From: Candidatus Krumholzibacteriia bacterium | GTDB lineage: Bacteria > Krumholzibacteriota > Krumholzibacteriia > Krumholzibacteriales > Krumholzibacteriaceae | DNA: 64,000 bases | Assembly: GCA_963836185.1 (NCBI GenBank) | Contig: CAWIIQ010000001.1 | Location: 128,001-192,000, forward strand | Reading direction: 5' to 3' | Shown here: piece after piece, positions 45,664 through 64,000 of the stretch | Position numbering within the stretch: position 1 is the stretch's first letter | Layout of the letters: every line of letters begins with the position of its first letter | Position numbers and translations under genes: made by a program | Notes under the pieces: generated by a model | What the model was told of the DNA's origin: nothing | The model's input: the letters and a program-made list of their open reading frames with translations, nothing else | The model's database searches: none

Positions 45664-46238
45664 ATGTCAATTGAAGGGCACGAAGACCGAGAAGAACATC
45701 CTCGCCGCGTTCACCGGCGAGTCGCAGGCACGCAACCGCTACACCTATTTCGCCAGCAAGGCGAAGAAGGAAGGATTCGTCCAGATCTCCGAAATATTCA
45801 CGGAGACGGCGAACCAGGAGAAGGAGCACGCCAAGAGACTGTTCAAGCTTCTCGAGGGCGGAGAGGTCGAGATAACCGGGAGCTTCCCCGCGGGTGTCAT
45901 CGGCACTACGCAGGAGAACCTGATGGAAGCGGCCGGCGGGGAGAACTACGAGTGGACGCGAGATGTATCCCGGGTTCGCAAAGATCGCCCGCGAAGAGGG
46001 CTTCGACGAGATCGCCGTGATCTTCGAGTCGATCGCCAATGCGGAGAAGCAGCACGAGAAGAGATACAACGACCTGAGGGAAAATATCGAGAACGGTTCG
46101 GTCTTCAAGAAGGACAAGCCGGTCGTCTGGCGCTGCCGCAACTGCGGGTACACCCATACCGGCGAGGAAGCTCCCGACCAGTGCCCCGCGTGCGCGCACC
46201 CGAAGGCGCATTTCGAGGTCCTCGGGGAGAACTGGTAA
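45664..46238 (+). CDS. rbr: Rubrerythrin, two frameshifts
   Basis: LKGTKTE.N, GESQARNRY, EKEHAK, MYPGFA, WRCRNCGY...CPAC.HP. Confidence 0.92.
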
Positions 46239-46290
46239 ACGAACGGAAATATTTTCGAAAGCGATTCCAATAACGTGAAAGGAGCCTGAA

Positions 46291-46669
46291 ATGGCAAAGA
46301 GACTGGAAGTTTACAAATGCGACATGTGCGGCAACATCGTTGAGGTCCTCACCGGCGGAGCGGGCAAGCTCGTCTGCTGCGGGCAGGAGATGAAGGTATT
46401 CGAAGAGAAGACCGCCGATTCCTCGACCGAGAAGCATGTGCCCTGTGATCGAGAAGATCGACGGCGGATACAAGGTCGTTGTCGGCAGCACGCTCCATCC
46501 GATGGAGGAGAAGCATTACATCGAGTGGATCCAGCTGATGTCGGGCGACGCGTCGATCAGGGCCTTCCTGAAGCCCGGCGACGCCCCGGAAGCTGTCTTC
46601 ATGTGTGATTTCGATGATGTCTCGGCCCGTGAGTACTGCAATGTACACGGGCTGTGGAAGGAGGAATAG
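46291..46669 (+). CDS. dfx: Desulfoferrodoxin (superoxide reductase), one frameshift
   Basis: [34 protein letters not shown]. Confidence 0.92.
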
Positions 46670-46675
46670 ACAGAA

Positions 46676-47228
46676 ATGATCCCCGACAAGATCACAAAGG
46701 CCTTTAACGAGCAGATCATGCACGAGTATTTCTCGGCGTATCTCTATCTCTCGATGGCCGCATGGCTGGAGACCGAGGGCCTCGAGGGAATGGGGCGCTG
46801 GATGCGCGTGCAGGCCCTGGAAGAGATGACTCACGCGATGAAGTTCTTCGATCATATTCTCGAGAGAGGGGGCGAGCCGGAGCTGCTCGCCATCGAGAAA
46901 CCTCAGGCAAAGTGGGATTCGGCGCTCGACAGCGTTCGAGAACGCGCTCGCCCACGAGCAGTTCATCAGCGGCAAGATCAACGACCTGATGACCCTCTCG
47001 ATCGCAGAGAACGACCATGGCTCCAGGACGATGCTGCAGTATTTCGTCGATGAGCAGGTCGAGGAAGAGGACAACGCTTCGAAGAACGTCTACAACCTCC
47101 GGATGGTCGGCGACAAGGGGCAGGGGCTCCTGATGCTCGACCGTGAATTCGGTGCGCGGGTCTTCAAGCTTCCCGCTGACTCCGGTACTCGGTACAGGGG
47201 CGGAGTAACGGACCGGAATGAACGATGA
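46676..47228 (+). CDS. ftnA: Ferritin, frameshifted near 46930; true stop possibly 47208
   Basis: NEQI..E..SAYLYLSM, EE..HAMKF, FVDEQVEEE. Confidence 0.88.
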
Positions 47229-47301
47229 TCCGGGATGACAGGGGGAGGCATGGACCTCCCCCGCGTCCCGGCAATACAAGTTTCAAGGAAGGAACCTGAC
47301 G

Positions 47302-48528
47302 ATGAAGGCATGCAGAGCTGTGCAGATTTCCGACAATGTCTACTGGGTCGGAGCGATCGACTGGGACATCAGGAACTTTCACGGCTATTCGACCGATCGC
47401 GGCACGACGTATAACGCTTACCTGATAATGGCCGAGAAGGTCACCCTCGTGGATGCCGTCAAGGCGAACTTCCGCGATGAGCTGCTTGCCAGGATCAGTT
47501 CGGTCATCGATCCGGAGAAGATCGACTATATCATCTCAAATCACGCCGAGATGGACCACTCGGGCTGCCTCCCTGACATCATCGACAGAGTCAAGCCGGA
47601 GAAGGTCTTTGCCTCCGTCAAGGGCGTCGAGGCTCTCGAGCAGCACTTCGGGCTGAAGGATATCACCGCCGTCGAGGACGAGGGGGAGATCGACCTCGGT
47701 AACATGAAGGTCACCTGCCTCGAGACGAGGCTCCTTCACTGGCCCGACAGCATGGTCTCATACCTTGCCGAAGACAAGATCCTCTTCTCCCAGGACGGCT
47801 TCGGGATGCATCTCGCCTCGAACGAACGTTTCGACGACGAGCTCGACGATTACGTTCTCTACTACGAGGCGGCGAAGTATTACGCCAACATCCTTCTTCT
47901 CTATTCCCACATAGCGGCGAAGATCATCAAGAGGCTCGAAGGCAGCGGACTCGATATACAGACGATCGCTCCCGACCACGGGCCGGTCTGGCGCTCGAAG
48001 ATCCCGTGGATCATGGATCTTTACAAGAAATGGTCGGCCAGGGAGCTGAAGAAGAAAGCGATCATAGTGTACGACTCGATGTGGGACAGCACCCGTATGA
48101 TGGCGCGCGCGATAGAGGACGGCCTGACCGAAGGCGGTGTGCATGTCAAGGTGCTCAGCGCGACCGGGACGAGCCGTGCCGAGGTCGTCACCGAGCTGAT
48201 CGATGCCGCCGCGCTGATAGTCGGCTCGCCTACTCTCAACAACCACATCTTCCCGACTGTCGCCGATATCCTCACATACATCAAGGGGCTCAAGCCGAAG
48301 GGAGTCGTCGGCGCGGCGTTCGGTTCGTACGGGTGGAGCGGAGAGTCCGTCCGCGTGCTCAATGCCTGGCTCGAGGATATGAAGGTCGAGCTGGTGGGGG
48401 AGGGAGTCAGGGTACAGTACGTCCCCAAGGCCGAGGACCTCGAGAGATGCAGGCAGCTGGGGATGGATATTGCGAAAAGGATCGAGGGCCTGCCCGATCC
48501 CCTGATCGTCACAAAGGTCTGCACCTGA
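47302..48528 (+). CDS. fprA: FprA-family flavodiiron protein
   Basis: GTTYNAYLI, NHAEMDHSG, HWPDSM, PDHG, flavodoxin domain FGSYGWSGE. Confidence 0.93.
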   Translation: MKACRAVQISDNVYWVGAIDWDIRNFHGYSTDRGTTYNAYLIMAEKVTLVDAVKANFRDELLARISSVIDPEKIDYIISNHAEMDHSGCLPDIIDRVKPEKVFASVKGVEALEQHFGLKDITAVEDEGEIDLGNMKVTCLETRLLHWPDSMVSYLAEDKILFSQDGFGMHLASNERFDDELDDYVLYYEAAKYYANILLLYSHIAAKIIKRLEGSGLDIQTIAPDHGPVWRSKIPWIMDLYKKWSARELKKKAIIVYDSMWDSTRMMARAIEDGLTEGGVHVKVLSATGTSRAEVVTELIDAAALIVGSPTLNNHIFPTVADILTYIKGLKPKGVVGAAFGSYGWSGESVRVLNAWLEDMKVELVGEGVRVQYVPKAEDLERCRQLGMDIAKRIEGLPDPLIVTKVCT

Positions 48529-48560
48529 CAGAGCGTCAGGATATTCTATAAAACATCAAT

Positions 48561-48597
48561 GGGCCCCGGTTTACATGACCGGGGCCCTGCTGTTTTT
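48561..48597 (+). terminator. Intrinsic terminator after fprA
   Basis: GGGCCCCGGT...ACCGGGGCCC stem followed by a T-rich tail. Confidence 0.65.
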
Positions 48598-48602
48598 ACC
48601 CG

Positions 48603-48651
48603 TTGACAGAATGCAGTTTCATCGCTATATTGGTATATAAGTACCGCAATA
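48603..48651 (+). promoter_or_regulatory. Sigma70-type promoter with an imperfect inverted repeat (candidate Rrf2 operator)
   Basis: TTGACA-17-TATATT; TATTGGTA-TATAAG-TACCGCAATA. Confidence 0.55.
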
Positions 48652-48669
48652 CTCAAATAAGGAGATGGC

Positions 48670-49119
48670 GTGTCAGGCTCACTGAGAATATCCGAAGCGG
48701 CCGCACTGGCTCTGCATACGATGGTCTACCTGGCGGGAGACCCGTCGACTCAATATTCGGCCGGGAATCTGTCGAGGGTGATCTGCGTATCGGAGGCTCA
48801 CCTGGCCAAGGTCCTCCAGAGACTGGCGAAAGAGGGGTTGCTCGTTTCGGTCAGGGGGCCGAAAGGCGGGTTCCGGCTCGCCCGGAAGACAGATGAAATA
48901 ACGCTGCTCGATGTATTCGAGGCGATCGACGGCCCATACGAACCTTCAGAATGCCTCATGCACGACCGGACATGCGGTCAGATGGGCTGCCTGTTCGGCG
49001 ATCTGCTCGGCAATATAAACAGGCAGGTCAGGGATTACCTGGGAGGCCGCAGCCTCGAGGACGTCAAGTGGGTCTATGATTCATCAGGCGACAGGAAGGA
49101 AAATTTCAATGAAGCGTAA
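48670..49119 (+). CDS. Rrf2-family transcriptional regulator
   Basis: SEAHLAKVLQRL, S.RGPKGGF.L, three C-terminal Cys. Confidence 0.9.
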   Translation: MSGSLRISEAAALALHTMVYLAGDPSTQYSAGNLSRVICVSEAHLAKVLQRLAKEGLLVSVRGPKGGFRLARKTDEITLLDVFEAIDGPYEPSECLMHDRTCGQMGCLFGDLLGNINRQVRDYLGGRSLEDVKWVYDSSGDRKENFNEA

Positions 49120-49981
49120 GATAATCACTATCGATGACGAGAAGTGCAACGGATGCGGAGCGTGTATTCCGGACTGCCCTGAGGGAGCGCTGCAGATGAT
49201 CGACGGCAAGGCGAGGCTGATCAGCGATCTCTTCTGCGACGGCCTCGGCGCCTGCATAGGAAGCTGCCCTGAGGGTGCTATAACGGTAGTGGAGAGGGAG
49301 GCCGAGCCTTACGACGAATCGAAGGTGATGGCCAATATCGTCAAACACGGCGTCAACACCATCAAGGCCCACCTCGCTCACCTGCAGGATCACGGTGAGG
49401 ATGAGTTGATGCGTGAGGCGATCGCCTATCTCGTGGAGAATGACATAGAGGTCCCCTCTGAATTCCTCGATTCGAAGTGCGCCTGCGATGAGATCGGTGA
49501 AGCGCCCGGCGGACAAGGCCCTTCCGGCGGTGGTTGTCCCGGTGCGAGACTGATGGATCTCGGCAAGCCCGCACCCCCACGCCCGGAGGAGACCCAGACA
49601 TCGGCAGGCCAGATGTCCTCACGGCTGAGCCAGTGGCCAGTTCAGATCATGCTGATTCCGCCGCATGCCCCATTTCTCAACGGTGCCGACCTGCTCTTCG
49701 CGGCTGACTGCGTACCGTTTGCCTACCCCGAGTTCCACGAGAAGCTTCTGAAGGGCCGGGTATGCCTGATAGGATGCCCCAAATTCGATGACGCGCAGCT
49801 TTATCTCGACAAGATCACAGAGATCTTCAAGCTCAACGATGTCAAGTCGATTATGATCGCCTACATGGAGGTCCCATGCTGCGGCGGTATGGTAAGGATA
49901 ATCGAGGAAGCGCTCAAGGCCTCCGGGAAGAATATCCCGCTGGCGAAGCAGAAGATCGGCATCAAGGGCGACGAGCTCTAG
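49109..49981 (+). CDS. 4Fe-4S dicluster / iron-sulfur cluster-binding protein
   Basis: CNGCGACIPDC, CDGLGACIGSCP, GCPG, QWPVQ, AADC, GCPK, EVPCC. Confidence 0.88.
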   Translation: MKRKIITIDDEKCNGCGACIPDCPEGALQMIDGKARLISDLFCDGLGACIGSCPEGAITVVEREAEPYDESKVMANIVKHGVNTIKAHLAHLQDHGEDELMREAIAYLVENDIEVPSEFLDSKCACDEIGEAPGGQGPSGGGCPGARLMDLGKPAPPRPEETQTSAGQMSSRLSQWPVQIMLIPPHAPFLNGADLLFAADCVPFAYPEFHEKLLKGRVCLIGCPKFDDAQLYLDKITEIFKLNDVKSIMIAYMEVPCCGGMVRIIEEALKASGKNIPLAKQKIGIKGDEL

Positions 49982-51313: not shown

Positions 51314-51979
51314 TTACTGATTCGAAGATTCCGTCTTCACGCGTATCTTTGAGTCCTTTGAAATTGAGAAGCCCGCTAAATCCGTATCGAGCAGTCCATT
51401 CTGGCCGGTTATCAGAACTTTGCCGTCGACTACCACCTCGACGCCGCTGGTATTGATTCCCCTCTCTCCGACCAGGATATATGAGCGGTTACCATTGGCG
51501 ATGTTGGTAAATTCACTCAGGAAATAATTGCCGTCACCCGAGCAGAACCTGACGGGTTCTCTTTCAGGCCGCTCGGTAGCCGCTGCCAGCTGCGGCTCCT
51601 CTTCAAAAGGTCGTGTGTACGGCTCGTAGAACAGCTCGATCCCCTCCGACACGGATTCAGTAGTTTCAGAAGGAACCAACGATACATTATGCATGAGGAT
51701 ATCGAATCGTTCGTCGATATCTGCAGTTTCAACCGCCTGGCGATAGTAGCTGACGAATTCAATCAGCTCCTTTAGCGTTTCTCTGCACATCTCGCATGCC
51801 TCCAGATGGGATCTGAGATCCCCTTCACCGGGCTGAAACAGATCCGCCACAAGTGCCGCCGGATCTTTTCCCGGAGCGTCTTCTGCTCCGGCCCCTCCAA
51901 GTGCTCTAATGGCAAGTGCTTCCAACCTTCCCCCAGGGATACACCCTTCGGGCGTCGCATTTTTACACACTTGTCTCAC
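51314..51979 (-). CDS. Soluble zf-HC2 (ZAS-like) anti-sigma-like protein with internal LAAA motif
   Basis: HLEACEMC (HxxxCxxC), no TM segment, EPQLAAATE linker, small beta-rich C-domain. Confidence 0.65.
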   Translation of the reverse strand: MRQVCKNATPEGCIPGGRLEALAIRALGGAGAEDAPGKDPAALVADLFQPGEGDLRSHLEACEMCRETLKELIEFVSYYRQAVETADIDERFDILMHNVSLVPSETTESVSEGIELFYEPYTRPFEEEPQLAAATERPEREPVRFCSGDGNYFLSEFTNIANGNRSYILVGERGINTSGVEVVVDGKVLITGQNGLLDTDLAGFSISKDSKIRVKTESSNQ

Positions 51980-51997
51980 CCCTTTACTGGAGACATT

Positions 51998-53083
51998 TCA
52001 TATATCTGCACGAATCTTTCTCAAAAAATTATCCCAGAGCACCTTCCAGAAGTTCTGGAAGCTCCCCATGTGCTTCTCTCTGTACAGTTCGGCGTCGCAT
52101 CCGGCGATGTGCCTGCCCAGAGCTTCATGGTGCTGGACCTTGCTGCCGTGGACTATGATCTCCTCGAGCATGTCCCATCCAGCCTTTTCGTAAGCGCCCC
52201 GGTATTCCGCCGAGCCGCCACTTCTCCAGCCATATGTCGCGGAGGTCTCGTCGAGGGCCTCTCTGGCCAGAAGGAGCATCTCCTTCTGAAGGTACTCCTG
52301 CATCGGGTCGATCTTCGTGGTCTCGATCCGGGGAGGGATGAAACGGGTGCTGATCAGCTCGAATACCGCGGTGCGAAGAGTCGAAATATGGATACAGCTG
52401 CCGTATATTTCGGTTCCCAGGAGCCAGTCGAATATCAGGCCTACCAGCCGTCCGGGTTTTTCTGATCCACGCAGGAGAGGCGCGCAGCCGGCGATGATCT
52501 CATCCGCCGAAGCCTGCCGCCCGGTGGATTTCCCCGGCGCTTCGAGGTCAGTTACGATATCGGCGTTTCGCCTGTATCTCGGGTCAGCCGTGATATGCCG
52601 GGCAACGGCCGAGAAGACATAGTGCAGCAGCTTCTTCTCGGTCTGGGATATCTCTTTGAGGGTATGGCTCAGATTGACCCCGGATATGCCCCTGAGGAAG
52701 AAAAAGAGGTCTCTCTTCTCGATCTTGTCGTCTCCGGAAAAGAATCGAAGGATGAGATTCGTGATTTCCAGGAAATTGTCCTCCCCCCTCGTCGAGTAGG
52801 GGATCTCTGCGGTGCTGTGCGCTATTTCATCGAATTCGTATGACACGGTGCTGAGAAAGAACCAGGAGGATCTCTTCGATTTCATCTCGAGCTCGGCGAC
52901 CGCCATCGCGAAGAGAGCGAGATAGATCATCTTGATGTCCCGGCGGACCGACAGTTCGGCCCCGTCGATCTCACCATCCATCAGCTCTGCGCCGGCCAGT
53001 GGCGAGAATACATCGCGGATATTCTCTGCCGCCTTGTACAGGCGTTCGAGATCGACGCCTTCAAGAATGTTTGAGTCGTTCAC
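51998..53083 (-). CDS. Helical hypothetical protein, possible highly divergent sigma-like factor
   Basis: 361-aa ORF overlapping the upstream gene by 4 nt; weak sigma region-2 and region-4 resemblance only. Confidence 0.5.
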   Translation of the reverse strand: MNDSNILEGVDLERLYKAAENIRDVFSPLAGAELMDGEIDGAELSVRRDIKMIYLALFAMAVAELEMKSKRSSWFFLSTVSYEFDEIAHSTAEIPYSTRGEDNFLEITNLILRFFSGDDKIEKRDLFFFLRGISGVNLSHTLKEISQTEKKLLHYVFSAVARHITADPRYRRNADIVTDLEAPGKSTGRQASADEIIAGCAPLLRGSEKPGRLVGLIFDWLLGTEIYGSCIHISTLRTAVFELISTRFIPPRIETTKIDPMQEYLQKEMLLLAREALDETSATYGWRSGGSAEYRGAYEKAGWDMLEEIIVHGSKVQHHEALGRHIAGCDAELYREKHMGSFQNFWKVLWDNFLRKIRADI

Positions 53084-56000
53084 TTGTTCTTTCCCGCAAG
53101 ATGTTTCAGGTACGACCTGTTGACCGTCGGTTCGGCCACCCAGTTTTCGCCGTTCCAGTAGCGAATGCCCTCGAGGAGAGCTTTTTCATCGTCTTTCTCT
53201 TCCGGAAAATCCAGATAGGTCAGGCTGTCGACGCGGCCGCTGCTGCTCCTGACCACCTTGACTATCTCCGCACCGGTAAAGGTCATGCCATCCTCGATCG
53301 TGAACAATACTTCTTCGGTCCTGCTCTTCACCCTGACACGGAGGCTGTCGTCATTTTTCATGATGCGGGTGTGCAGGGGCCAGACACGGGAGACATACCT
53401 CTCGAACCGGTGATAGGGCGGAAGCTTGACATAGTATTTCGCTATATCGGTCTCCATCCCGGTGAGGGCATAGCAAGCTCCGCGAGGCGACGATCCTTCG
53501 ACGTTGCCGGGATCGAGGACGACTATGACATTTGCGTTCAGCGCTATGTTGTATCCTGTCAGCAGCAGTTCTTCCCTTCCGTCACCATCGATGTCCCAGG
53601 CAGCCATCTCCTGCATGATCCCCTTGTGGAAGAATGCCTCGAAAGATCCGTCATCAAGCGAGAACCTGACCAGGGAAGCAGGCGGTTCTGTCTTGTGATG
53701 GGTTCCCACAAAGAGATGTCCCGGCCCGAATTCCTCGCTGAACGGAGATGTCGATTTTATCATCTGCAGACTGATCCTGTGCGCTGTTCTGTCCATGCCG
53801 GAATCTAATATGGACGCTTCGTCATAGACATGCCTTCGTAGCGAGTTGTCCGCGCCGGTCGAATACCAGGATGAACAGCTTGTTTCGATCAGGATCGCTG
53901 TCATCTGAGTGCCACGAGTCAGCCACGGCCGCCAGTATTTCCTCGCCATCATCCTCCAGAAAATCCCCGAAAGAGATGTGCATGTACGCGCTCGACTTCG
54001 ATATATCAAATCCAACGTCATATGAAGCGATCAGGATTCCTCTGGCGCTCCTCATGAGCAGCCTGGTTTTGTTGTGACTGACCTGTGTTATGGTGCTGTC
54101 TATTTTTATGCCGCTATGTTCAAGATAAGATCTGTTCATCGTGGGGTCCGGCGTCCATTCTTTTCCATCCCAGTACCGGACACCTTCCATGAGCTCATTT
54201 TCATCTGTTTTCTTTCTGGCGTATTCGAGACTGGTGATGCTGTCAGGCGCCTTCCCTGCGCGCATTGTATGGCTCATGACCACTTCGGCACCGCAGATCC
54301 TCATGTCGTCCGCGAAGGAATACTTGACGTCTTCAGCGCGGCTTTTTATCGAAAGGTTCAGAGTATCGGCATCGTCGAGGATCGATACCCCTAATGGATA
54401 CATGGGGCCTGTCAATCTCTCGAACAGGCGGAATTCGGGGAATCTTATATAGTACTTCGCGATGTCGGCATTCATATACGGGACGTTATAATTGTAGCCT
54501 CCTGGGGATGAACCTGCCATGTGTGCGGGGTCTAACACCGCTGCGATGGAGGCGTCGAGGGCTATGTTGAATCCGGCAAGAAAGATCTCTCTCTTCCCGT
54601 CTCCATCGAAATCACGGGCTGTCATTTCGGGGCAGTATCCCTTGTGAAAGAACGCCTCGAATCCGCCTCTGATGACATCGGCTTTTATAACGGCGGCAGG
54701 AGTGAAGGTCCCGTAGTGCGTGCATACGGCTACAATGCCCTTCCGCAGCTCATCAAGAAAAACGGCGTTCGAAGCGATCATCGTTATAGGCTTTTCATAC
54801 GCCCAGGGATCCATCTCTTTCCCCATGACCTCTTGCTGATCGTATGCATTGTGGTGCATCAATCGTCCTTCATCGTTGAAGACGAAGAAGTGCAGCCTGT
54901 CGAAATTTGATTTTTGACGGCGGAACTGGCGTGATTCCACTGCGATTGCCAGAATCTCTTCTCCCGGATGATCGTCCAGGTCGTGACGATAGATCCGGAC
55001 GTGCGGGCTCGCCGGGTAGATGTAAAACTCCGCCTCGTGGGTCGTCAACAGACGCGCGTACTTGTTGTGCATGATCAACTGGCCACCCTTGACCTCGACA
55101 GTATCTACTTTCCGGTCGAGGTACGGTGGCAGGATAAATAGGACCAGCACGGCGAGCAGCAGGGGAACCAGGCTCGCTGCCAGATGCTTTCTCCACATGA
55201 ACAGCCTCTGAAGCAGCGGCTTGCCGATGGGCGTCCTGCGCCGGGCTGTCAGATCTGGATCGAGGAATATCCCGGCCACATCCGTAACGGGTACGAGATC
55301 GATCTTCCTCGCCGGGTACTCTCGGGAAAGGGCGGCAAGTTCCTTCTCTGCCGTATCGAGATTCCCGACAGGGAGGATCAGCTTCGAGAACCTCGAAAAG
55401 AAGGCGGCCCGCATCTTTTCGGCGATATGTGAATCTTCAACGGTCAGGATATTCCCGCCAGGGTCCACTTTGCCGGTAAAAGATGTGACATCGTCGAAAA
55501 TCAGTGTCTGCCTGTAGAGGTCGAGCCTGCTGAGGACGGATATGAGCAGGGCAGCGATGGCAAGACCCGCGGATCCCCCGGACAGCCTCTGGATCGCCGA
55601 AGCGGGGAAGGAGGCGATTTCGGGGAGAGATATCCTGTATTCCCTGGGCACTCTCAGGATACCTTTCATCCCCATCATGGAGGCTGCGTAATCCTCTCCG
55701 ACTTTTACGGCGGTACGGATCTGGCTCTCGAAGGTACTTTTAGGCTCGGCTGAGATGTTGTCGAAAGTGATTGCCGGATCGTATTTCCTCCGGACGCTCC
55801 ACTCACCGGTGATCCTGATCTCGACGCGTGCCTTTACGACACGGCCCGTACTGAAGGGTGTCTTTCCCGTGTTGTATGTCGATACGAGGGGGAGGCCGAC
55901 CGTACCCCAGGCGTTTTCCCTGAAGAAACCTCCAGTTCCGGTCTCGCTCCTGCCGTCAGTATCTGTATTCGGCCCGTTCGCGGGCCGGTTCCCGTCCAGG

Positions 56001-56371
56001 ACAGCCGAGATCGAATCGATCTCCGCCCGGATCCTCGATAATCCCTCTTCGACTCCGGCAGGGATATAGTCGCCTGTTGCCAGCGCGATGTCCCCGGTCA
56101 CCTCGTTAAGTGACAGCAGACCCTTGTATCCAAACGAGATATATGCCCCTGAGATGATCGTGTCCATGATGATGGGAGTGAAGCGGGCGAGCTGGGCGGC
56201 GTAGAAGGCCGGATTGGCGCTCTTGAGCTCCGCAAGCAGGATAGCGGCGGGCTCAGAGAGGGACAGGCCATCCTTCTTCCCCTTGAGTTTAAGGTAGAGG
56301 TGCTGAAGGAGGTCGTCGATTTCCCTGATCGACAGGTCGAAGTCGTTGGTCAATTGTGCCCCGCCTGGCAA
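53080..56371 (-). CDS. Transmembrane protein: Lon/S16 protease domain, TM helix and two tandem FG-GAP-like extracytoplasmic modules; one frameshift near 53843
   Basis: LSGGSAGLA..FTGKVD..G.I..V....EK..AA....LILP..N; TM LAASLVPLLLAVLVLFILP; DFDGDGKREI / DIDGDGREEL; the repeat alignment continues across the frameshift. Confidence 0.75.
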
Positions 56372-56479
56372 AGTCTCCCGCGGGTACCCCCTCCGCGGCG
56401 GCTCAAATATTTAAACCGGTTAATTCTAACCGATAACAGGCATCCAAATCAAGGAATTGAGAAAATCCGTCATTGATAC

Positions 56480-56524
56480 TTGACAGGCAACGATACGAGT
56501 AGTATCTTTACTATGGTTATAGTA
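56480..56524 (+). promoter_or_regulatory. Promoter and candidate BlaI-type operator
   Basis: TTGACA-17-TATCTT, then TACTAT-GGTT-ATAGTA (56509-56524). Confidence 0.7.
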
Positions 56525-56551
56525 GAACGGCCGGTTTCACAGGGAGAGGCT

Positions 56552-56950
56552 ATGGCAGGACAGGATAAACTCACTCCCGTCGAATGGGAAATAATGGAGG
56601 CGGTCTGGGCCCTGGGCGAGGCTCCCTCGGTCCGGGAAGTACTCGAGAATGCCTTTCCGAATGGTGAGAAGGCATACACGACTGTTCAGACGGTCATGAA
56701 CATACTCGAGAGAAAAGGATTCCTCGAAAGGAAGAAGACGGGGATGGTCAACTTCTACAGGCCGCTCCGCTCAAGGGAAGATATGGAGCGCGAGGAGATG
56801 TCATCTATCGTCGCGAGGATATTCGGGGGATCGAAGCCGGCACTGGCCAGCTCGCTTCTCTCCCTCGAGGGGCTCGAGCTCGGCGAGCTCGAGCAGATAA
56901 AGGAAATGCTGGCCAGGCGCGAGAAGGAGCTGAAGGAGGATACGAAATGA
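56552..56950 (+). CDS. BlaI/MecI/CopY-family repressor
   Basis: LT..EWEIM..VW, AYTTVQTVM..L.RKG, FGGS. Confidence 0.92.
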   Translation: MAGQDKLTPVEWEIMEAVWALGEAPSVREVLENAFPNGEKAYTTVQTVMNILERKGFLERKKTGMVNFYRPLRSREDMEREEMSSIVARIFGGSKPALASSLLSLEGLELGELEQIKEMLARREKELKEDTK

Positions 56951-58551
56951 TCCAGATGCTCAACAGCGCCGGAGCGACCTGGGGGGAGTTCTTTCTTCTC
57001 GCCGTAGTGCAGAACACGATATTTCTCGGTCTTGTCATCGCGGCTCTTCATATTTTCCGCAACGCGCCGGCCCGGGTGAGATATCTCATAGCTTTCACCG
57101 GTCTTGTGAAACTCGTGCTGCCCCCATTCCTGCGTATCCCTTCGATCATGACGATTCCGGAGGAGGGTGTCGGTGGTTACGGCAGCGTGATACCGTTTGT
57201 GAACGGTTCTGAAAGCGGATCGGTCTCGACGGTCATATCGGCAGGAGAGAATCTCACTGCTGCCGGAGTGTTTCTCGGGATCTGGGCCATTGTCGTTATT
57301 GCGGGGTTGGTCCTTCCCGTAGCGGCATCGGTCAGGCTCGCGCTGAAGTTGAGAAAAGCAGGACCTGTAGATCCAGGGGATATTCCCTGGATATCAGGTA
57401 TCGGGAACGTGCGGATCCTCAGGTCCGATCGCATCGCGATGCCGATCACCGTAGCCTATCTGCCGGGTCGCATATATGTCCCGATGGCATGGGACGAATG
57501 GACCATGAGCTGCCGCAGGATGGTCCTGATGCACGAGAAGGCCCACATGCAGAGACATGACGGACTCGTACTTATAATGCAGATAATCGCGAGAGCGATC
57601 TATTTTTTCCATCCGCTCGTCGCAATCCTCGATCGCAGGCTCTCCGAGTACAGGGAGATGGCATGCGACGACGCGACGGTAGGAGGGGACAGAGACTCCG
57701 GTGTGGAGTATTCCAGGTACCTGGTTGAAATCGCCGAATCGATCGTACGGGGTCCTTCCGTATGCGGCTCGGCGTCCGCCCTGATCAGGCGGAAGAATGA
57801 ACTGCTCAGAAGAGTAAGTTATCAGCTCGAGGAGGGCAGAATGCGTTCCATTTCAAAGACCAGGATAATGATACTGATGGCGGCGATAGTGCTGCTGGCA
57901 GTATCCCTTTCGTGGTACCGCGGCGAGGCGGATACCATTGACCCGCAACCGGCACCTCCGGTGCAGCCGGATCCTGCGGCACATCCCGCTCCCGTCGCGC
58001 CTCCGTCGCAGGAGAACTCAAAGAGGGCGATCAACGTGTCGCTCGCGAGCGATGGAGCCGAGGTCGACGGAAAGTCGATCGATTTGTCACTGCTCGTTGA
58101 GGCGCTCAAGTCAGTGGGAGGAGATGACCCGGAGAACGTCATGGTGAGGTTCGTATGTGCCGATGATGTGTCGATGGGGCAGGTCCGCATGTTTCACGAA
58201 GCCTTGGGAGAGGCCGGTATCGACAAGATCCGGTACGGTAAAAGTGATGGTGAGGGACTTACCATCCAGCTTCCGCCCCGGGAGGCGCTCGACCGGCTGG
58301 CGGAAATGCCGGAAACAATGATCATCGATGTGGTGGTCGGAAAGAACGGCGGTGTCGTTGTCGGTGCCCGGAATGTGGAGATAGATGAGCTGAAGGGTGT
58401 TATCGAAAAGAAACTCGAAGAGACACCTGTTGCTATCGTCGTGATCCACAATGATGAGGCAACGAGTTACGGTGATTTCACGAAGGTGCTTGCGCTGGCC
58501 AAGAAGGCGGGTGCGGAGCGGATCGTTGTTAAGTACGGAAAAGAAGAGTAA
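56947..58551 (+). CDS. BlaR1-type M56 metallopeptidase with Pro-rich linker and two ExbD/TolR-like C-terminal domains
   Basis: HEKAH..RHD, YFFHPL, REMACD; two copies of V....D..(V/T)S(M/Y)G...V...L..AG..(K/R)I. Confidence 0.85.
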   Translation: MIQMLNSAGATWGEFFLLAVVQNTIFLGLVIAALHIFRNAPARVRYLIAFTGLVKLVLPPFLRIPSIMTIPEEGVGGYGSVIPFVNGSESGSVSTVISAGENLTAAGVFLGIWAIVVIAGLVLPVAASVRLALKLRKAGPVDPGDIPWISGIGNVRILRSDRIAMPITVAYLPGRIYVPMAWDEWTMSCRRMVLMHEKAHMQRHDGLVLIMQIIARAIYFFHPLVAILDRRLSEYREMACDDATVGGDRDSGVEYSRYLVEIAESIVRGPSVCGSASALIRRKNELLRRVSYQLEEGRMRSISKTRIMILMAAIVLLAVSLSWYRGEADTIDPQPAPPVQPDPAAHPAPVAPPSQENSKRAINVSLASDGAEVDGKSIDLSLLVEALKSVGGDDPENVMVRFVCADDVSMGQVRMFHEALGEAGIDKIRYGKSDGEGLTIQLPPREALDRLAEMPETMIIDVVVGKNGGVVVGARNVEIDELKGVIEKKLEETPVAIVVIHNDEATSYGDFTKVLALAKKAGAERIVVKYGKEE

Positions 58552-58595: not shown

Positions 58596-61500
58596 CTACT
58601 CGTACTTGAAAGACTTGTCTGGATATTTCGGGGGATCGGGTACGTCGACCGGCTCTTTCTTTATCAGCTCCTTGAGGTGCTTTATCGCCGCGTCGAGCTG
58701 GGCGTCCTTCCCCTTGAAAGTGGCATGAGGCAGGTTGTCGACTATGATGTCGGGGTCTACGCCATGCCCCTCGATCAGCCACTCGCCCTCCGGGCCGTAG
58801 ACTCCTGTCTCGGCGGCCGAAGCCATTCCCCTGTCGGCAAGCCATGTCCTCATCGAGAGCCATATCTCGCCTCCCCACGTCCTCGTTCCGATCACCTTGC
58901 CCAGGTCGAGACGCCTGAACCCCTCGGTGAAAGCCTCGCCGTCGGAAGCGGTGCGCTCGTTGCAGAGAACGACGATGTGTCCCCTGAAGGCGTACTGCAT
59001 GTTCCATGTCGGAGAGCCCTTGCGCGGCTTCCAGTAGAACCATGCCTGGCGGATCAGCTTCTCGAGTATCCAGCTGTCGATATTGCCGCCGCGGTTGTGG
59101 CGTACGTCGATGATCAGCCCCTTGCGGTTGAAAACGGGATAGAAGTTGCGCACCCACTCGGAATAGTTTCCTCCGCCCATCGCGCGGAGGTGGACATATC
59201 CGATATCACCGTCCCCTTCTTCCTCGACTATCATCCGGCGCGTATACTCCCATTCGTTATAGCGGAGGTTGCTCTCCTGCCTCGGCGTGATCGGCTTTAC
59301 CACCGTCTCGACCGTCTCCTTCTTTCCTTTCGGCATGATTGTGAGAAGGACCTGCCTGTCAGCCTGGTTTTTCAGGAGCACGGCCGGGTCCTCTACGCTG
59401 AGGACTGAGATCCCGTTGATCGCAGTGATGACGTCGCCCTCGCCCGCCTTTACTTCCGGCCTCGCGAGAGGGGAGAGGTACTCGGGGTAATCGGGCTCTG
59501 TCTGGTAGATATGCTCGATCCTGTACCCTCCGGCCTTCTCGTCCCTTGTCAGCCTGGCGCCGAGCGAGGCGGGGCTGACCTGGTCCTCACCGCTGCGCCG
59601 GTCGCCTCCGAAGACGAAAGTGTGAAGGGCGGAGAGTTCGCCGACGAGATGAGCGATCAGGTCGTTGAGCTCGTTACGGTCGGTGACACGGTCGACGACG
59701 GGCAGATGCCTCTCGAGCAGGCCTTCGTAGTCTACGCCGTGCATGCCGGGATCGTAGAAGAAATCCCGCTCGAGGCGCCACGCCTCGATGAACATCTGTC
59801 GCCACTCATCGCGCGGTATCACCGAGAAATTCCAGGCGGAGAGGTCGACCTTCTCCTTCGCGAGTTTCGACGGGGGAGAGGTCGAGGCGTCTATGACATA
59901 GACGCTGCTGCCCTTGCGAACGATCAGTTTCTTTCCGTCGCCCGAGATGTCGTATCCGGTTACGCCGTCGAGCAGGGTCTTCGTCTCGATATCGTCGTTT
60001 GTTATCCCTATAGCCTTGAGGTTGCGTTTCCCCTCGTATGTGATCTCGCGGTCGACGACAAAGATCGCCTTGTCGTTGACCTTCATGCTCGAGTAAGCGC
60101 CGGCGGGAACGGGGACCTCGACCGCACGTTCGATGAGGCCATCGAGCTCTATCTCGACCTTAATGCCGTCGTCTTTCTCCTTCTCGTCATCCTTTTTCTT
60201 ATTTTCATCCTTTTTATCGTCCCCGTCCTTCTTTCCATTCTTCTCAGCGAGGTAGACCTCGTCATCGGGGAGGAAGGGCGAGCGCAGACCGGACTGAAGC
60301 GCTGTCATGTAGATCTTCGTCGTCTTGTCGAAGAAGGGCTCAGGCTGTCGTGGCCCCCACGGGGACCGAACGAGCGACCTGAAATTCCTGTCGGAGAGGA
60401 AATATATCCACTTGCCGTCGGGGGACCAGACAGGGTTCTCGCTGTCGACACGGTCGGTCGTCATAATCGTGATCTTGCCCGTGTCGAGACTGTAGAGATG
60501 TATCCGTGAATGCTGGTTCTCCGCGTTCGCCACGTAAGCGAGCCACCTGCTGTCGGGGGACCACGCGAATCCGTAGAAGCCGTATCGCTCGGAGGTGGCG
60601 ATACGCTTGTTCTTCTTCTTTTCGACGTCGTAGATCCAGAGCTCATAGTTCTTGTCATCGTAGACGAAATGCTTGCCGTCGGGGGACGGGACCCCTTCAT
60701 ACCGGAAGACTTTTCCGTCCGAGGTGAGAGCCTCCTCCATCCCCGGCACGATGGCGTCGAGCTTGACGAACTCGAGTTCACCTGTCTCGTCCGAGAGGGC
60801 GAGGATCGACTTGCCGTCAGGCATGAAGGCGGCATTGCGGTACCGCACGCTGTTTTTCCTCGTGACCTGGGCGAGACGGCCTTTCTTTACCGGCGCGGTA
60901 AATACGAGCCCGCGGGCTGTCATGACGATGCGGCTGGCGTCGTGAGAGATGCCGAGCGAGGTCATGTAGTTGACCGGGTTTTTCACCCATCGTTCCCTTG
61001 TCTGGTCGAAATCGGAGGCGAGGGTGATATCCAGCCTGCTGTCCTCGCCCTTTTCAATGTCGTAGAGGAAGAGGTCGGCGACTCTCTGGTAGACGATCTT
61101 TCCGCCGTGCAGCGAGGGATGGTTGATATCCCATCCGCTGTGAGTCGTGTGCTGCACGAGATCTCCGCCTGATTCGTCCATCGACCAGATATTCATCGTG
61201 CCGTCACGGTCGGTCACGAAGTATACGCGGCCGTTCCACCACATCGCCGCCTTGCTCGTGCCGGTGTAGTCGGCGGTCAGGGGGACGGCCTCGTTCTTGC
61301 CGGGGCCGAACTTCCACAGGTTCTGCGCCGTGCCCCCTGTGTACCTCTTCGTCTGGCTCCCCTGGAACGGCAGCCTGGTGAAATAGAGGGCGCCGTCACC
61401 GCCGTACGATCCGTCGCTCGCCTGCGCGAGAGGAACGAGCTCGATATTCCCCGAGTCGAGATCGATCGCGGCGAGCTGCATGTCCGGCAGGGTAGAGAAT

Positions 61501-61871
61501 TTATACGTGCTGTACAGGATCCTGCCGTCGGGCGTCCATCCGGAGACAAGAGCGGTTCCGCCCTCGAATGTCCGCCTGACGGGGAGCCCGCCGTCTACAG
61601 GTATCGTGTAGACCTCGGTCGGGCCTTCGTACTGGGCGGAGAAGGCGATGAGGGTCCCGTCGGGGGAGATCTCGGCGTTCGTCTCCTGGCCGTGGTGTGT
61701 GGTAAGGCGCCTCGCCATCCCGCCATCGGCGCCGACGATCCATAGGTCGCCCTCGGCGGTGAATACGATCGTATCGTCGTGTATGGCGGGGAACCTGTAG
61801 TAGCCGAGGTTGCCCGCGGCGTTGAGCGTTACAGGTATGATCAGAAAGAGAAGCAGAAGAAGGCGTTTCAT
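58596..61871 (-). CDS. Tricorn protease homolog (PD40 propellers, PDZ, peptidase S41)
   Basis: GYYRFPAI..D.IVF..EGDLW, ELSALH, IDVRHN.GG, ASDGE, GTRTWGG, IEGHGVDPD. Confidence 0.95.
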   Translation of the reverse strand: MKRLLLLLFLIIPVTLNAAGNLGYYRFPAIHDDTIVFTAEGDLWIVGADGGMARRLTTHHGQETNAEISPDGTLIAFSAQYEGPTEVYTIPVDGGLPVRRTFEGGTALVSGWTPDGRILYSTYKFSTLPDMQLAAIDLDSGNIELVPLAQASDGSYGGDGALYFTRLPFQGSQTKRYTGGTAQNLWKFGPGKNEAVPLTADYTGTSKAAMWWNGRVYFVTDRDGTMNIWSMDESGGDLVQHTTHSGWDINHPSLHGGKIVYQRVADLFLYDIEKGEDSRLDITLASDFDQTRERWVKNPVNYMTSLGISHDASRIVMTARGLVFTAPVKKGRLAQVTRKNSVRYRNAAFMPDGKSILALSDETGELEFVKLDAIVPGMEEALTSDGKVFRYEGVPSPDGKHFVYDDKNYELWIYDVEKKKNKRIATSERYGFYGFAWSPDSRWLAYVANAENQHSRIHLYSLDTGKITIMTTDRVDSENPVWSPDGKWIYFLSDRNFRSLVRSPWGPRQPEPFFDKTTKIYMTALQSGLRSPFLPDDEVYLAEKNGKKDGDDKKDENKKKDDEKEKDDGIKVEIELDGLIERAVEVPVPAGAYSSMKVNDKAIFVVDREITYEGKRNLKAIGITNDDIETKTLLDGVTGYDISGDGKKLIVRKGSSVYVIDASTSPPSKLAKEKVDLSAWNFSVIPRDEWRQMFIEAWRLERDFFYDPGMHGVDYEGLLERHLPVVDRVTDRNELNDLIAHLVGELSALHTFVFGGDRRSGEDQVSPASLGARLTRDEKAGGYRIEHIYQTEPDYPEYLSPLARPEVKAGEGDVITAINGISVLSVEDPAVLLKNQADRQVLLTIMPKGKKETVETVVKPITPRQESNLRYNEWEYTRRMIVEEEGDGDIGYVHLRAMGGGNYSEWVRNFYPVFNRKGLIIDVRHNRGGNIDSWILEKLIRQAWFYWKPRKGSPTWNMQYAFRGHIVVLCNERTASDGEAFTEGFRRLDLGKVIGTRTWGGEIWLSMRTWLADRGMASAAETGVYGPEGEWLIEGHGVDPDIIVDNLPHATFKGKDAQLDAAIKHLKELIKKEPVDVPDPPKYPDKSFKYE

Positions 61872-61994
61872 CCTTACCCCCTGGGAGAGTTGATAGAAGC
61901 CGCCCGGGCACGGCTGGGTTTGTGAACTGTGGACTGAGGATTATACAACAGGGAGACGGGGATGAATCCAGAAATGTTTCAGCGGCGGGCCTGG

Positions 61995-62261
61995 CTATCT
62001 CAATATCATTCCGATTATCGCGAAGATGAGGGCGAGGTTCATCGCCGTTATATATACGTAGAACCACGGGCCTGCGTGGCCGTTCTCGTTCTCGCTCGAT
62101 GTGATGACCTGGTAGTCATGGACGTACTTGATGATCATCATCCTGAAGAAGATGAAGCTGATCTTGTGGCCGCGGGCAGAGAGGAATGAGGCGATTTTTA
62201 TCGCCGAGACAATACCCACTGCGATGCTGACCAGTGCCGCCGCCAGAAATAAGGTACTCAT
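61995..62261 (-). CDS. Small two-TM membrane protein
   Basis: GGAGGG RBS; two hydrophobic helices. Confidence 0.55.
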   Translation of the reverse strand: MSTLFLAAALVSIAVGIVSAIKIASFLSARGHKISFIFFRMMIIKYVHDYQVITSSENENGHAGPWFYVYITAMNLALIFAIIGMILR

Positions 62262-62366
62262 GTCGCCCCTCCTTTAGACTGTTCCCGTGTTCCGTGAAGG
62301 AGACGCGCCGCTGTCGGGCGGCGCGACATCCTTCATTCATTACAGATTACAACCTGTGGGCAGTAA

Positions 62367-63668
62367 TTATTCAATATCAATCGTCTCCGCCCGAAGATCG
62401 CCGTAGATGACCCTCCAGCGGCCGTCCTCGAGTTTCCAGCGCATCAGGACCTTGTCGTGATCGGTGGCTCCGACTGTAGCGCCGTTATATTCGACTTCTA
62501 CGCCCTTCTCCACCATCCCGGCGTAGAATGTGCTGAGACCGCGGACCTTGAAGAAGACCTTTATCTCGTCAGGGCCCCACTCTCCATCTTCCTGGAGACG
62601 GTCGCGGTCCTTGCGGATCTCGCTCGCCGCCGTGTCGAAGGCGGGATCGCCGGGGTACCTTCCGTTTGAAAGGGTAGCGTAGGCCCGGAGTCCCTCGATC
62701 GCTCCTTCCTCGCCGTCCTTTGTTTCGCCGAAATCGAGGGTGCCGTATCCATCGGGGACCTCGAATTCGAAATCCTCCTTCGACAGGGACGCGTTCCACT
62801 GGAAGTCGGTGTATTTCTCGCGGACATCGACCTTTCCATCGTCCGACCTGAACTCCCTCTCTATCAGCACGGGCCAGTTCGTCGACGCGTCGACCCAGAG
62901 GCGGACCGAGCCCTCCTCGTACTGTCCGGCCCACATCGCCGGGTCGTCGACCTCGATCCCCGAGGCGGTGACTCCGTCGATCTCACGGGTGCCTATCTCC
63001 TCGTAGTCGTAAGAGTGGAAATACTCGACCATATCCTGTGCGCTGGTCATGTCGGTCAGGCTCTTTGCGTCGCGGCCTGTCAGGCCGATCGTCACGTATG
63101 CCTCGTCCTTGTGATGGAGGAGGTGGACCTCCTTTTCACCTGCCCTCAAAAAGGTTTCGGCGGAGAGCTTGCCGTCGATGTACATGACCTTCTTCTGACC
63201 AAATTTTTTCGAATGATAGGCTATTATTTCCATGCTGTCCCAGGGGGTCGCCACCCGGTCTATCCGGCAGATGAAATCCTGCGCGTCGCGGACCTGGGCG
63301 ATGACATCCGCCCACGCGACGTCGCCGCTTCCGCCCCTGAATATGACGTTCCATCCGACTAACAGGACAAGCGCGGCTGCCGCGGCCAGAGCGATCCTTA
63401 CCGGCCAACTCAATGACGTTCTTTTTCTGCTCTCAGTCTGCGCTGCGATAGATTCCATGACTCGTTCCTCCAGCTGTTCGATCCTCGTGTCCATAGATCG
63501 AGTCATTCCGGTCAGCAGCATGTCGTCCTCGAGAAGAGCGTCGCGGTACTCCCTGCACACGGCGCATTCGGCGATGTGTTCCTCGATTCCCGCGGTCTCT
63601 TCGGCGGGAAGTTCCGAGTGCAGCATCTCCTCGAGTTTTTCCTGGATCTCGACGCAGCGGTCGTTCAT
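62367..63668 (-). CDS. Anti-sigma factor: zf-HC2, TM helix and LolA-like periplasmic domain
   Basis: HIAECAVC, TM IALAAAAALVLLVGW, AWADV, LWVD..T.WP, F.F.VP.GY; overlaps the ECF sigma stop. Confidence 0.8.
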   Translation of the reverse strand: MNDRCVEIQEKLEEMLHSELPAEETAGIEEHIAECAVCREYRDALLEDDMLLTGMTRSMDTRIEQLEERVMESIAAQTESRKRTSLSWPVRIALAAAAALVLLVGWNVIFRGGSGDVAWADVIAQVRDAQDFICRIDRVATPWDSMEIIAYHSKKFGQKKVMYIDGKLSAETFLRAGEKEVHLLHHKDEAYVTIGLTGRDAKSLTDMTSAQDMVEYFHSYDYEEIGTREIDGVTASGIEVDDPAMWAGQYEEGSVRLWVDASTNWPVLIEREFRSDDGKVDVREKYTDFQWNASLSKEDFEFEVPDGYGTLDFGETKDGEEGAIEGLRAYATLSNGRYPGDPAFDTAASEIRKDRDRLQEDGEWGPDEIKVFFKVRGLSTFYAGMVEKGVEVEYNGATVGATDHDKVLMRWKLEDGRWRVIYGDLRAETIDIE

Positions 63669-64000
63669 TTCGAACCTGCCTGTTTCTCAAGGATCCTGCG
63701 CAGTTTCCTGCGCGCCCTGCTCAGCCTTGTGCACGCTCCGGCGTGGCTTATCTCGAGTTCCTCCGAAAGCTTCTTCGCGCTCTTTCCATCGAAGTAGAAT
63801 AGCATCAGCGGAGTGCGGTACTGCTCCGGGAGTTCGGCCAGAGCCTCGTGCAGCGCCGAATAGTCATCGGCATCCGGCTGCGGGTCTTTCATTCTTTCTT
63901 CCAGGAGCTCACGGCGCCTCGCTCTGACCCGGATATGATCGCGGCAGAGGTTTCTCGCGATGTGTGTGATCCACGGCCCGAACGATTCACCACTGCGAAG
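63665..64000 (-). CDS. ECF sigma factor, 5' end beyond the window
   Basis: SFGPWITHIARNLCRDHIR (region 2); LPEQYR..L.L.YF.GKS...TRLSRARRKLR (region 4). Confidence 0.9.
   Translation of the reverse strand, partial: LRSGESFGPWITHIARNLCRDHIRVRARRRELLEERMKDPQPDADDYSALHEALAELPEQYRTPLMLFYFDGKSAKKLSEELEISHAGACTRLSRARRKLRRILEKQAGSK

Follow-up and report, generated by a model that had tools for sequence, protein, structure and literature searches.

A 64,000-nucleotide stretch of contig CAWIIQ010000001.1 of a Candidatus Krumholzibacteriia bacterium (the window) carries on its minus strand a three-gene unit that is likely to represent a genuine, conserved and so far undescribed form of protease/anti-sigma/sigma signalling. 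Gene 1 (53080–56371) encodes a predicted receptor-protease of about 1090 residues, read across one frameshift, with a helical N-domain, a Lon (S16) proteolytic domain, one membrane helix and two FG-GAP/propeller-like outer modules. Gene 2 (51998–53083) encodes an all-helical protein of 361 residues of an unnamed family, predicted to be a sigma-like factor, and gene 3 (51314–51979) a soluble protein of 221 residues with an N-terminal domain like that of the zinc-associated anti-sigma (ZAS) proteins, predicted to be an anti-sigma. It is probable that the single-pass Lon receptor cuts gene 3 after a Leu-Ala-Ala (LAA) motif, that ClpXP removes this inhibitor and that gene 2 is thereby freed as a sigma-like factor.

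The proteolytic domain of gene 1

Residues 154–378 of gene 1 (55238–55912) form a Lon proteolytic domain that is not accompanied by an AAA+ module. In the Pfam search, gene 1 matches nothing but Lon_C, and that weakly (E 0.095). In the predicted structure, calculated from an alignment of 109 sequences (mean predicted local distance difference test score 85), the domain superimposes on E. coli Lon (PDB entry: 1rr9) with Z 19.7 and a root mean square deviation of 2.2, 181 of 182 residues being aligned. The profile of the domain matches archaeal LonB/Lon (PDB entry: 1xhk) with E 2e-9 and CalpL, the protease of the CalpL-CalpT-CalpS (CalpLTS) system, with E 0.11. RadA, ComM and BrxL are also related by fold (Z 14–16 in the structural search), and CalpL is not among the top 50 structural matches of gene 1, which is still compatible with a shared fold.

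The predicted catalytic residues are Ser267, in a GGSAG motif (codon 55571–55573), and Lys319 (codon 55415–55417). Across the best 150 sequences of the gene 1 family (421 representatives at 50% clustering) together with the window sequence, fragments included, the serine is kept in 146 and the lysine in 147 of the 151 rows. Both residues are kept in 108 of 109 mostly full-length homologues, so that the dyad is almost invariant in an alignment with a mean column identity of 20%, and 102 of the 108 dyad-bearing homologues have the same spacing of 52 residues. A Walker A motif occurs in one of the 109 homologues, and in the model the part before the protease domain consists of only about 125 helical residues. 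This is in agreement with a preliminary description of the locus, in which a Lon/S16 domain with the GGSAG serine, a lysine 52 residues further on and no AAA+ Walker motifs had been read from gene 1, and for which the Lon fold is now found by both profile and structure.

The membrane helix and the outer modules

Gene 1 has one hydrophobic helix, at approximately residues 397–415 (55127–55183), as had been noted before, and 94 of the 109 homologues are likewise predicted to have one membrane helix. In 105 of the 109, Lys and Arg are more frequent ahead of this helix than behind it, and one of the 109 has a hydrophobic stretch at its N-terminus. By the positive-inside rule, the bias ahead of the helix predicts an N-in topology, with the protease inside and the propeller outside.

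Outer module 1 (54107–55114) has FG-GAP-like repeats; residues 412–717 of the model match beta-propellers, integrin alpha included, with Z of about 11–12, and FG-GAP Pfam matches are found in homologues. Outer module 2 (53080–54106) is a duplicate of it, with 42% identity over 248 residues. The duplicated extracytoplasmic module of the preliminary description is therefore present in the window, though as a lineage-specific feature, since most homologues are about 700–800 residues long and have one outer module. In three homologues of about 1040 residues (P0067, P0096 and P0128) laminin-G domains replace the propeller, two of these proteins having also an Ig-like domain, which indicates that the outer part is modular.

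Outer module 2 also contains the frameshift, by which the gene 1 region is split into the minus-strand open reading frames (ORFs) 53822–56371 (849 residues) and 53080–54021 (in another frame). Aligned with the DNA of an orthologue, the gene has one inserted base near 53842 (53841–53843), and three orthologues of the same genus are unbroken, at 1092, 1110 and 1120 residues, matching the earlier estimate of about 1090 residues once the extra base is removed. A near-identical DNA contig begins to match at 53841, with four letters unaligned, which fits an extra base and does not bridge the site. As the orthologues are unbroken and other genes in the same assembly are likewise split by frame changes, the frameshift is probably an assembly error. 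The likely start of gene 1 is the TTG at 56353, where the orthologue ORFs begin, which corrects the longer ORF.

Gene 3 and its conserved LAA motif

The gene 3 family profile matches the ZAS anti-sigmas RslA (E 4e-4), RsiW, ChrR and DdvA; in the same comparison with PDB sequences CalpT is not matched. Among 28 gene 3 members, Pfam detects zf-HC2 in two and no MazF or DUF2080 domain. Neither gene 2 nor gene 3 has a hydrophobic membrane helix. The HxxxCxxC zinc motif and the missing membrane helix that had been described for gene 3 are found in the window (H58, C62 and C65; 51785–51808), and the zinc motif is not a family-wide property, since 39 of 63 receptor-linked gene 3 proteins have it and the other 24 are without its ligands.

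The best-conserved feature of gene 3 is Ala132-Ala133 after a hydrophobic residue, which in the window is Leu131 (51581–51589). When gene 3 proteins of at least 150 residues are counted (nine shorter rows being excluded), 62 of the 63 that are linked to a receptor have hydrophobic-Ala-Ala at the same aligned position, the exception reading LVA. Of the 17 others it is found in one, whose gene adjoins a frameshifted receptor, and in none of the remaining 16, which are receptor-less relatives. Such a triplet occurs anywhere in the sequence in 171 of 781 background ORFs. According to the CalpL preprint, CCaCalpL cuts CalpT within the sequence LAAA, after the second alanine, and the exposed LAA is a degron (10.1101/2024.05.08.593097). 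The window's gene 3 reads QLAAA at its predicted cut site, and clpX is present in the genome. By analogy with CalpT, it is likely that the LAA of gene 3 serves as cut site and C-terminal ClpXP degron, coupled to the presence of the receptor.

Gene 2 as a candidate sigma-like factor

The gene 2 family consists of proteins of 330–360 residues, which in the models are all-helical with a winged-helix-like middle part. When gene 2 was compared exhaustively with known structures, sigma or sigma-like chains, identified by the titles of their entries, made up 20 of the 50 top-ranking matches (only Z 5.0–6.9), mostly on residues 9–151; the N-terminal domain resembles sigma domain 2. Profile searches of the PDB with gene 2 give nothing significant. 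The ESM Atlas has no usable match for the window's gene 2; for an orthologue it returns mostly unnamed clusters and one neighbour cluster in which 15% of the members have Sigma70_r2, which is a lead only. That gene 2 would be a true sigma factor is the weak link of the scheme: the fold evidence for it is moderate and the sequence methods are negative.

Distribution and co-occurrence of the triad

The receptor is found in 16 of 61 relatives, in 15 of 181 genomes of its own phylum, in 23 of 301 genomes of the phylum that holds Ignavibacteriales and Balneolaceae and in 24 of 121 genomes of the order of Balneolaceae. Receptor profile matches, some of them partial, are present in 21 of 133 genomes of the KSB1 phylum. 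Among 71 non-duplicate receptor loci (four duplicates being dropped; related loci are not independent), both partners are present at 57, in several lineages of the Fibrobacteres-Chlorobi-Bacteroidetes (FCB) group, and 11 of the 14 loci that miss partners are cut by a contig end. The gene order is either 1-2-3 or 2-3-1, and some lineages that have the triad differ so far that their gene 2 products are only about 13% identical to that of the window. The neighbourhood survey that had been suggested in the preliminary description thus finds the triad across several phyla. Cultured hosts with the triad are the Balneolaceae Gracilimonas amylolytica LA399, G. mengyeensis DSM 21985 and Rhodohalobacter sulfatireducens WB101. 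No relative turned up when viral contigs were scanned.

The genome of the window has a second, diverged triad (G000:C1:418260-422394; L001:7261-11395). This triad has a receptor with a single outer module, its gene 2 is frameshifted, and it sits among large secreted proteins with tails like those of type IX secretion system (T9SS) cargo and FlgD. At several loci (L047, L049-L051, L055, L057, L028 and L142) a single gene 2/gene 3 pair is followed by a tandem array of two or three diverged receptors, which suggests that more than one input feeds a common output.

Two other arrangements of the partner genes are observed. A gene 2/gene 3 pair without receptor (L092-L107 and L178) occupies in most cases a fixed place in KSB1 chromosomes, flanked by lpxK and a response regulator on one side and by more genes of response-regulator type on the other. 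Its gene 3 retains the zinc motif but not the LAA, with a promoter-like variant of its own, and a different release mechanism is therefore likely for this pair. In the other type (L173, L175-L177 and L179), a gene 2 of about 390–420 residues is followed by a zinc-finger-only partner of 85–135 residues.

DNA motifs and likely output

A T9SS sorting tail is present on the first gene after the triad at 13 of 60 loci, compared with 11 of 525 other ORFs of the same loci; the background in the window's own genome is 88 of 2664 ORFs, and TIGR04183 confirms all 12 of the 12 tails tested. The motif TTTTCTGCA-N17-(G/T)GA, which includes a weak direct repeat, is enriched in the DNA that follows the triad at Bacteroidota and KSB1 loci. 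Its core is present in 10 of 61 downstream flanks, in none of 62 upstream flanks and in 3 of 302 controls, and with a leave-one-out matrix 24 of the 61 downstream flanks score above the 95th percentile of the controls. In L190-L196, copies lie 52–161 nucleotides ahead of successive giant cargo genes, of lipoprotein operons near the triad and of gene 3; these copies are outside the training windows, in regions partly picked for holding a match. At the stop codon of gene 2, a copy of the motif or of a variant is present in 20 of 59 pairs that are linked to a receptor and in 13 of 26 pairs that are not. On account of its spacing, the motif was not taken for a sigma-54 promoter.

The clade of the window has its own bipartite element, TTCGTGC(A/G)-N16-CCAG(T/A)A, at the stop of gene 2 (52014–51985), with an 8-base box (52014–52007), a 16-nucleotide spacer and a 6-base box (51990–51985); it is a candidate gene-2-dependent promoter of gene 3. 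The boxes and the 16-nucleotide spacer are the same in 11 of 11 members examined, though the stop codon shifts, and two codons that are rare, CGT (9.9% of Arg) and ATT (8.5% of Ile), are part of the element in 11 and 10 members, respectively. The element is not seen in four more distant loci of the class (L001, L032, L033 and L035), and at the window's own locus no target is found except gene 3. Metatranscriptome contigs from one study match gene 3 only; these contigs may include DNA and give no measure of relative expression.

In two genomes (L193, 890-12031, and L201, 9478-19393), an operon of exported proteins and of small proteins that from their motifs we take to be ExbD/TolQ-like converges on the triad, and in L193 a strong match to the DNA motif lies just ahead of this operon. 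The output of the triad is likely a small regulon of nearby genes that encode T9SS-sorted proteins and other exported ones.

Borders of the operon and neighbouring genes

The preliminary description of three tightly coupled minus-strand genes closed by a terminator is confirmed by the ORFs, by the 4-nucleotide GTGA overlap of genes 1 and 2 and the 18-nucleotide gap between genes 2 and 3, and by an intrinsic terminator-like hairpin of 16 pairs with a T run (51293–51258, minus strand), similar hairpins being present in relatives of the genus. A sigma70-like promoter candidate for the operon lies at 56423–56452 on the same strand; similar upstream boxes are also found in the genus relatives.

Divergent from the operon, on the plus strand at 56480–58551, lie genes for a BlaI-like repressor and for an M56 peptidase that also carries ExbD-like domains. 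This pair adjoins the triad in one of 15 relative loci checked, and a functional link of the triad to it or to the adjacent KamA-like genes was rejected because neither association is conserved beyond the genus. The plus-strand genes at 45671–49981 form an oxidative-stress-like cluster, which from their motifs we take to be rubrerythrin-, desulfoferrodoxin-, ferritin-, flavodiiron- and Rrf2-like; several of these ORFs are split by frame changes, like gene 1. The minus-strand region 58596–64000 encodes a Tricorn-like exported protease and a separate, classical extracytoplasmic function (ECF) sigma factor with a membrane zf-HC2 anti-sigma (62367–63668).

Proposed mechanism and alternative explanations

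In the proposed mechanism, an envelope signal at the propeller would cluster the receptor, in analogy with the filaments of CalpL, and the clustered Lon domain would cut gene 3 in trans after the LAA, in the way described for CalpT, which CalpL cleaves in trans within the filament (10.1101/2024.05.08.593097). ClpXP would then destroy the cleaved ZAS fragment via the exposed C-degron, and the freed gene 2 would bind RNA polymerase, read the bipartite motif and transcribe the local genes of exported proteins. The gene-2-dependent promoter would at the same time provide feedback by making more gene 3. The CalpLTS-like logic with an envelope sensor had already been put forward in the preliminary description, and its parts concerning the protease fold, the dyad, the triad and the anti-sigma-like gene 3 are supported, with the LAA as an added point; the sigma identity of gene 2 receives moderate support from the fold and none from the sequence comparisons. 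The lack of a Lon fold or dyad and a triad that does not co-occur had been named as grounds for rejecting that proposal; what is found is a Lon fold with a conserved dyad and a co-occurring triad. A wider claim, to which we incline by a small margin, is that of a new signalling class, in which a Lon receptor, an LAA degron, an unrecognised sigma family with sigma-2 and non-canonical DNA-binding domains and a bipartite promoter for T9SS proteins are used across the FCB group, and in which receptor arrays and swapped outer domains feed one sigma.

Several observations weigh against this mechanism or its wider form. No Pfam sigma family is found in 65 gene 2 members, the NCBIfam sigma matches are three and weak (E 0.02–0.06), Foldseek finds no match for gene 2 at E 0.001, and the HHalign probability of gene 2 against an alignment of 13 ECF sequences is 3%. 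The best Z of gene 2 (6.9) is within the range of common arrangements, and its C-terminal domain (residues 250–361, taken within the whole model) matches globin- and phycobiliprotein-like bundles, not sigma-4. Three receptor loci with adequate flank (L031, L146 and L150) miss both partners. Gene 2 is present in 104 of the 133 KSB1 genomes and is thus far commoner there than the receptor, which means that the gene 2/gene 3 pair also exists without it. The 16 receptor-less controls of the LAA count are close kin, mostly from one KSB1 chromosomal site, and therefore amount to about one lineage-level control. The strict motif occurs in 88 of 121 genomes, compared with 24 of 121 for the receptor, so that many receptor-free genomes carry it; with the Bacteroidota-type matrix the flanks of the triad in the window score no higher than background, and the genome-wide scan with the clade element finds no second site above background in its own genome.

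Of the three alternatives considered, the least improbable, although unlikely, keeps the receptor-protease and the degron step as proposed and takes gene 2, which gene 3 would hold, not as a sigma factor but as an activator that binds DNA or as an accessory of RNA polymerase. The negative outcome of every sequence test for sigma would be explained in this way, as would the length of 330–360 residues with the winged-helix-like middle and a C-terminal domain without a sigma-4 match, and the weak direct repeat of the motif could be read by a dimer. The structural matches of the N-domain are, however, enriched for sigma-2, the partner gene 3 is ZAS-like, and the motif is bipartite, with a fixed spacer of 16–17 nucleotides just upstream of genes; the Atlas cluster with Sigma70_r2 points in the same direction, as a lead. 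There is only a slight chance that the Lon domain is instead a binding scaffold, as in RadA and ComM, or cuts itself or another substrate, gene 3 being released or sequestered without the LAA cut. The fold shared with RadA, ComM and BrxL agrees with this possibility. In Lon proteases the serine and lysine are separated by about 41–43 residues, and the spacing of 52 in gene 1 differs from this. It differs likewise from that of CalpL, for which the preprint gives the pair S152/K193 (10.1101/2024.05.08.593097). The near-invariance of the dyad at such low overall identity and the way the LAA tracks the presence of the receptor nevertheless argue for proteolysis of gene 3.

The probability is marginally smaller still for an anti-phage or abortive defence module, which would sense phage attachment or envelope damage and arrest growth via gene 2, like CalpLTS. 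The patchy occurrence of the receptor (15 of the 181 genomes of its phylum), the tandem expansion of receptors and a weak PADLOC CARF_LON match in two homologues, covering the Lon part only, would fit such a role; against it stand the lack of any PADLOC match for the proteins of the window, the lack of any RAMP match in the genome, the flanking genes, which are those of secreted proteins, peptidases and housekeeping functions, and the motif that precedes genes of T9SS cargo. The phage-sensing option of the preliminary description is without support, the neighbourhood and motif data pointing to the control of secreted and surface proteins.

If the receptor-protease mechanism is correct, it adds a route of transmembrane signalling and a sigma-like family missed by Pfam to the widespread bacteria of the FCB group, it extends a logic of the CalpL type beyond CRISPR systems, and it puts forward a candidate for the regulation of T9SS cargo. 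The combination of a modular outer domain and a site-specific protease could also be a useful chassis for engineered receptors. The model is directly testable, as the cut site, degron and promoter are predicted and cultured hosts carry the triad.

Comparison with known systems

The triad resembles CalpL-CalpT-CalpS, the Lon-SAVED protease, anti-sigma and ECF-like sigma of type III CRISPR loci, in having an ATPase-less Ser/Lys domain of Lon fold, a three-gene unit and an LAA in a soluble, anti-sigma-like gene 3 (10.1101/2024.05.08.593097). It differs in its sensor, which is SAVED in CalpL and an extracytoplasmic propeller behind a membrane helix in gene 1, and in gene 3, which is ZAS-like and not MazF-like/DUF2080 as CalpT. 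Pfam finds no SAVED in gene 1 or its homologues; a SAVED search of the own genome was also empty, which is uninformative, as the positive control was likewise silent. No RAMP family match is found in the 92.5% complete genome, with a control detected in 5 of 14, and no Cas-like gene was noted among the flanking ORFs inspected, in line with the earlier statement that CRISPR genes are not nearby. The triad is not a member of CalpLTS: SAVED and CRISPR are not found, and its partner proteins have no detectable homology to those of CalpLTS. Since the Lon domain is far closer to LonA/LonB than to CalpL (E 2e-9 and 0.11), a separate recruitment of the fold is suggested. With LonA and LonB gene 1 shares the proteolytic fold and the dyad; unlike these, it lacks AAA+, and a membrane helix after the protease domain leads to a large outer domain.

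BlaR1 and MecR1 combine an outer sensor and a cytoplasmic protease in one membrane polypeptide, which inactivates the soluble regulator BlaI. The same joining of sensor and protease is predicted for gene 1, but with a Lon S16 Ser/Lys protease in place of the M56 zinc protease, a propeller in place of the penicillin-binding sensor, a single membrane pass and an anti-sigma-like target in place of a repressor.

The regulated intramembrane proteolysis of anti-sigmas, as in DegS/RseP-RseA-sigmaE and PrsW-RsiW-sigmaW, is also similar to the proposed scheme, which would share with it the envelope signal, the anti-sigma cleavage, an Ala-Ala C-degron, the completion by Clp and, as in RsiW, the ZAS domain. 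For RseA the degron is VAA, according to the CalpL preprint (10.1101/2024.05.08.593097). In contrast to the DegS/RseP and PrsW routes, sensing and cutting would reside in one protein, and since gene 3 is soluble a relay of site-1 and site-2 cleavage is not needed.

A description of the triad was not found in the literature searched, which did not extend to subscription papers, including the original CalpL paper. The main-text passages compared from a preprint on the reclassification of ECF sigma factors do not mention Lon or FG-GAP (10.1101/2019.12.11.873521). The combination of the three genes and all three protein families are unnamed in the libraries searched, and each step of the proposed mechanism has a precedent in the systems compared here.

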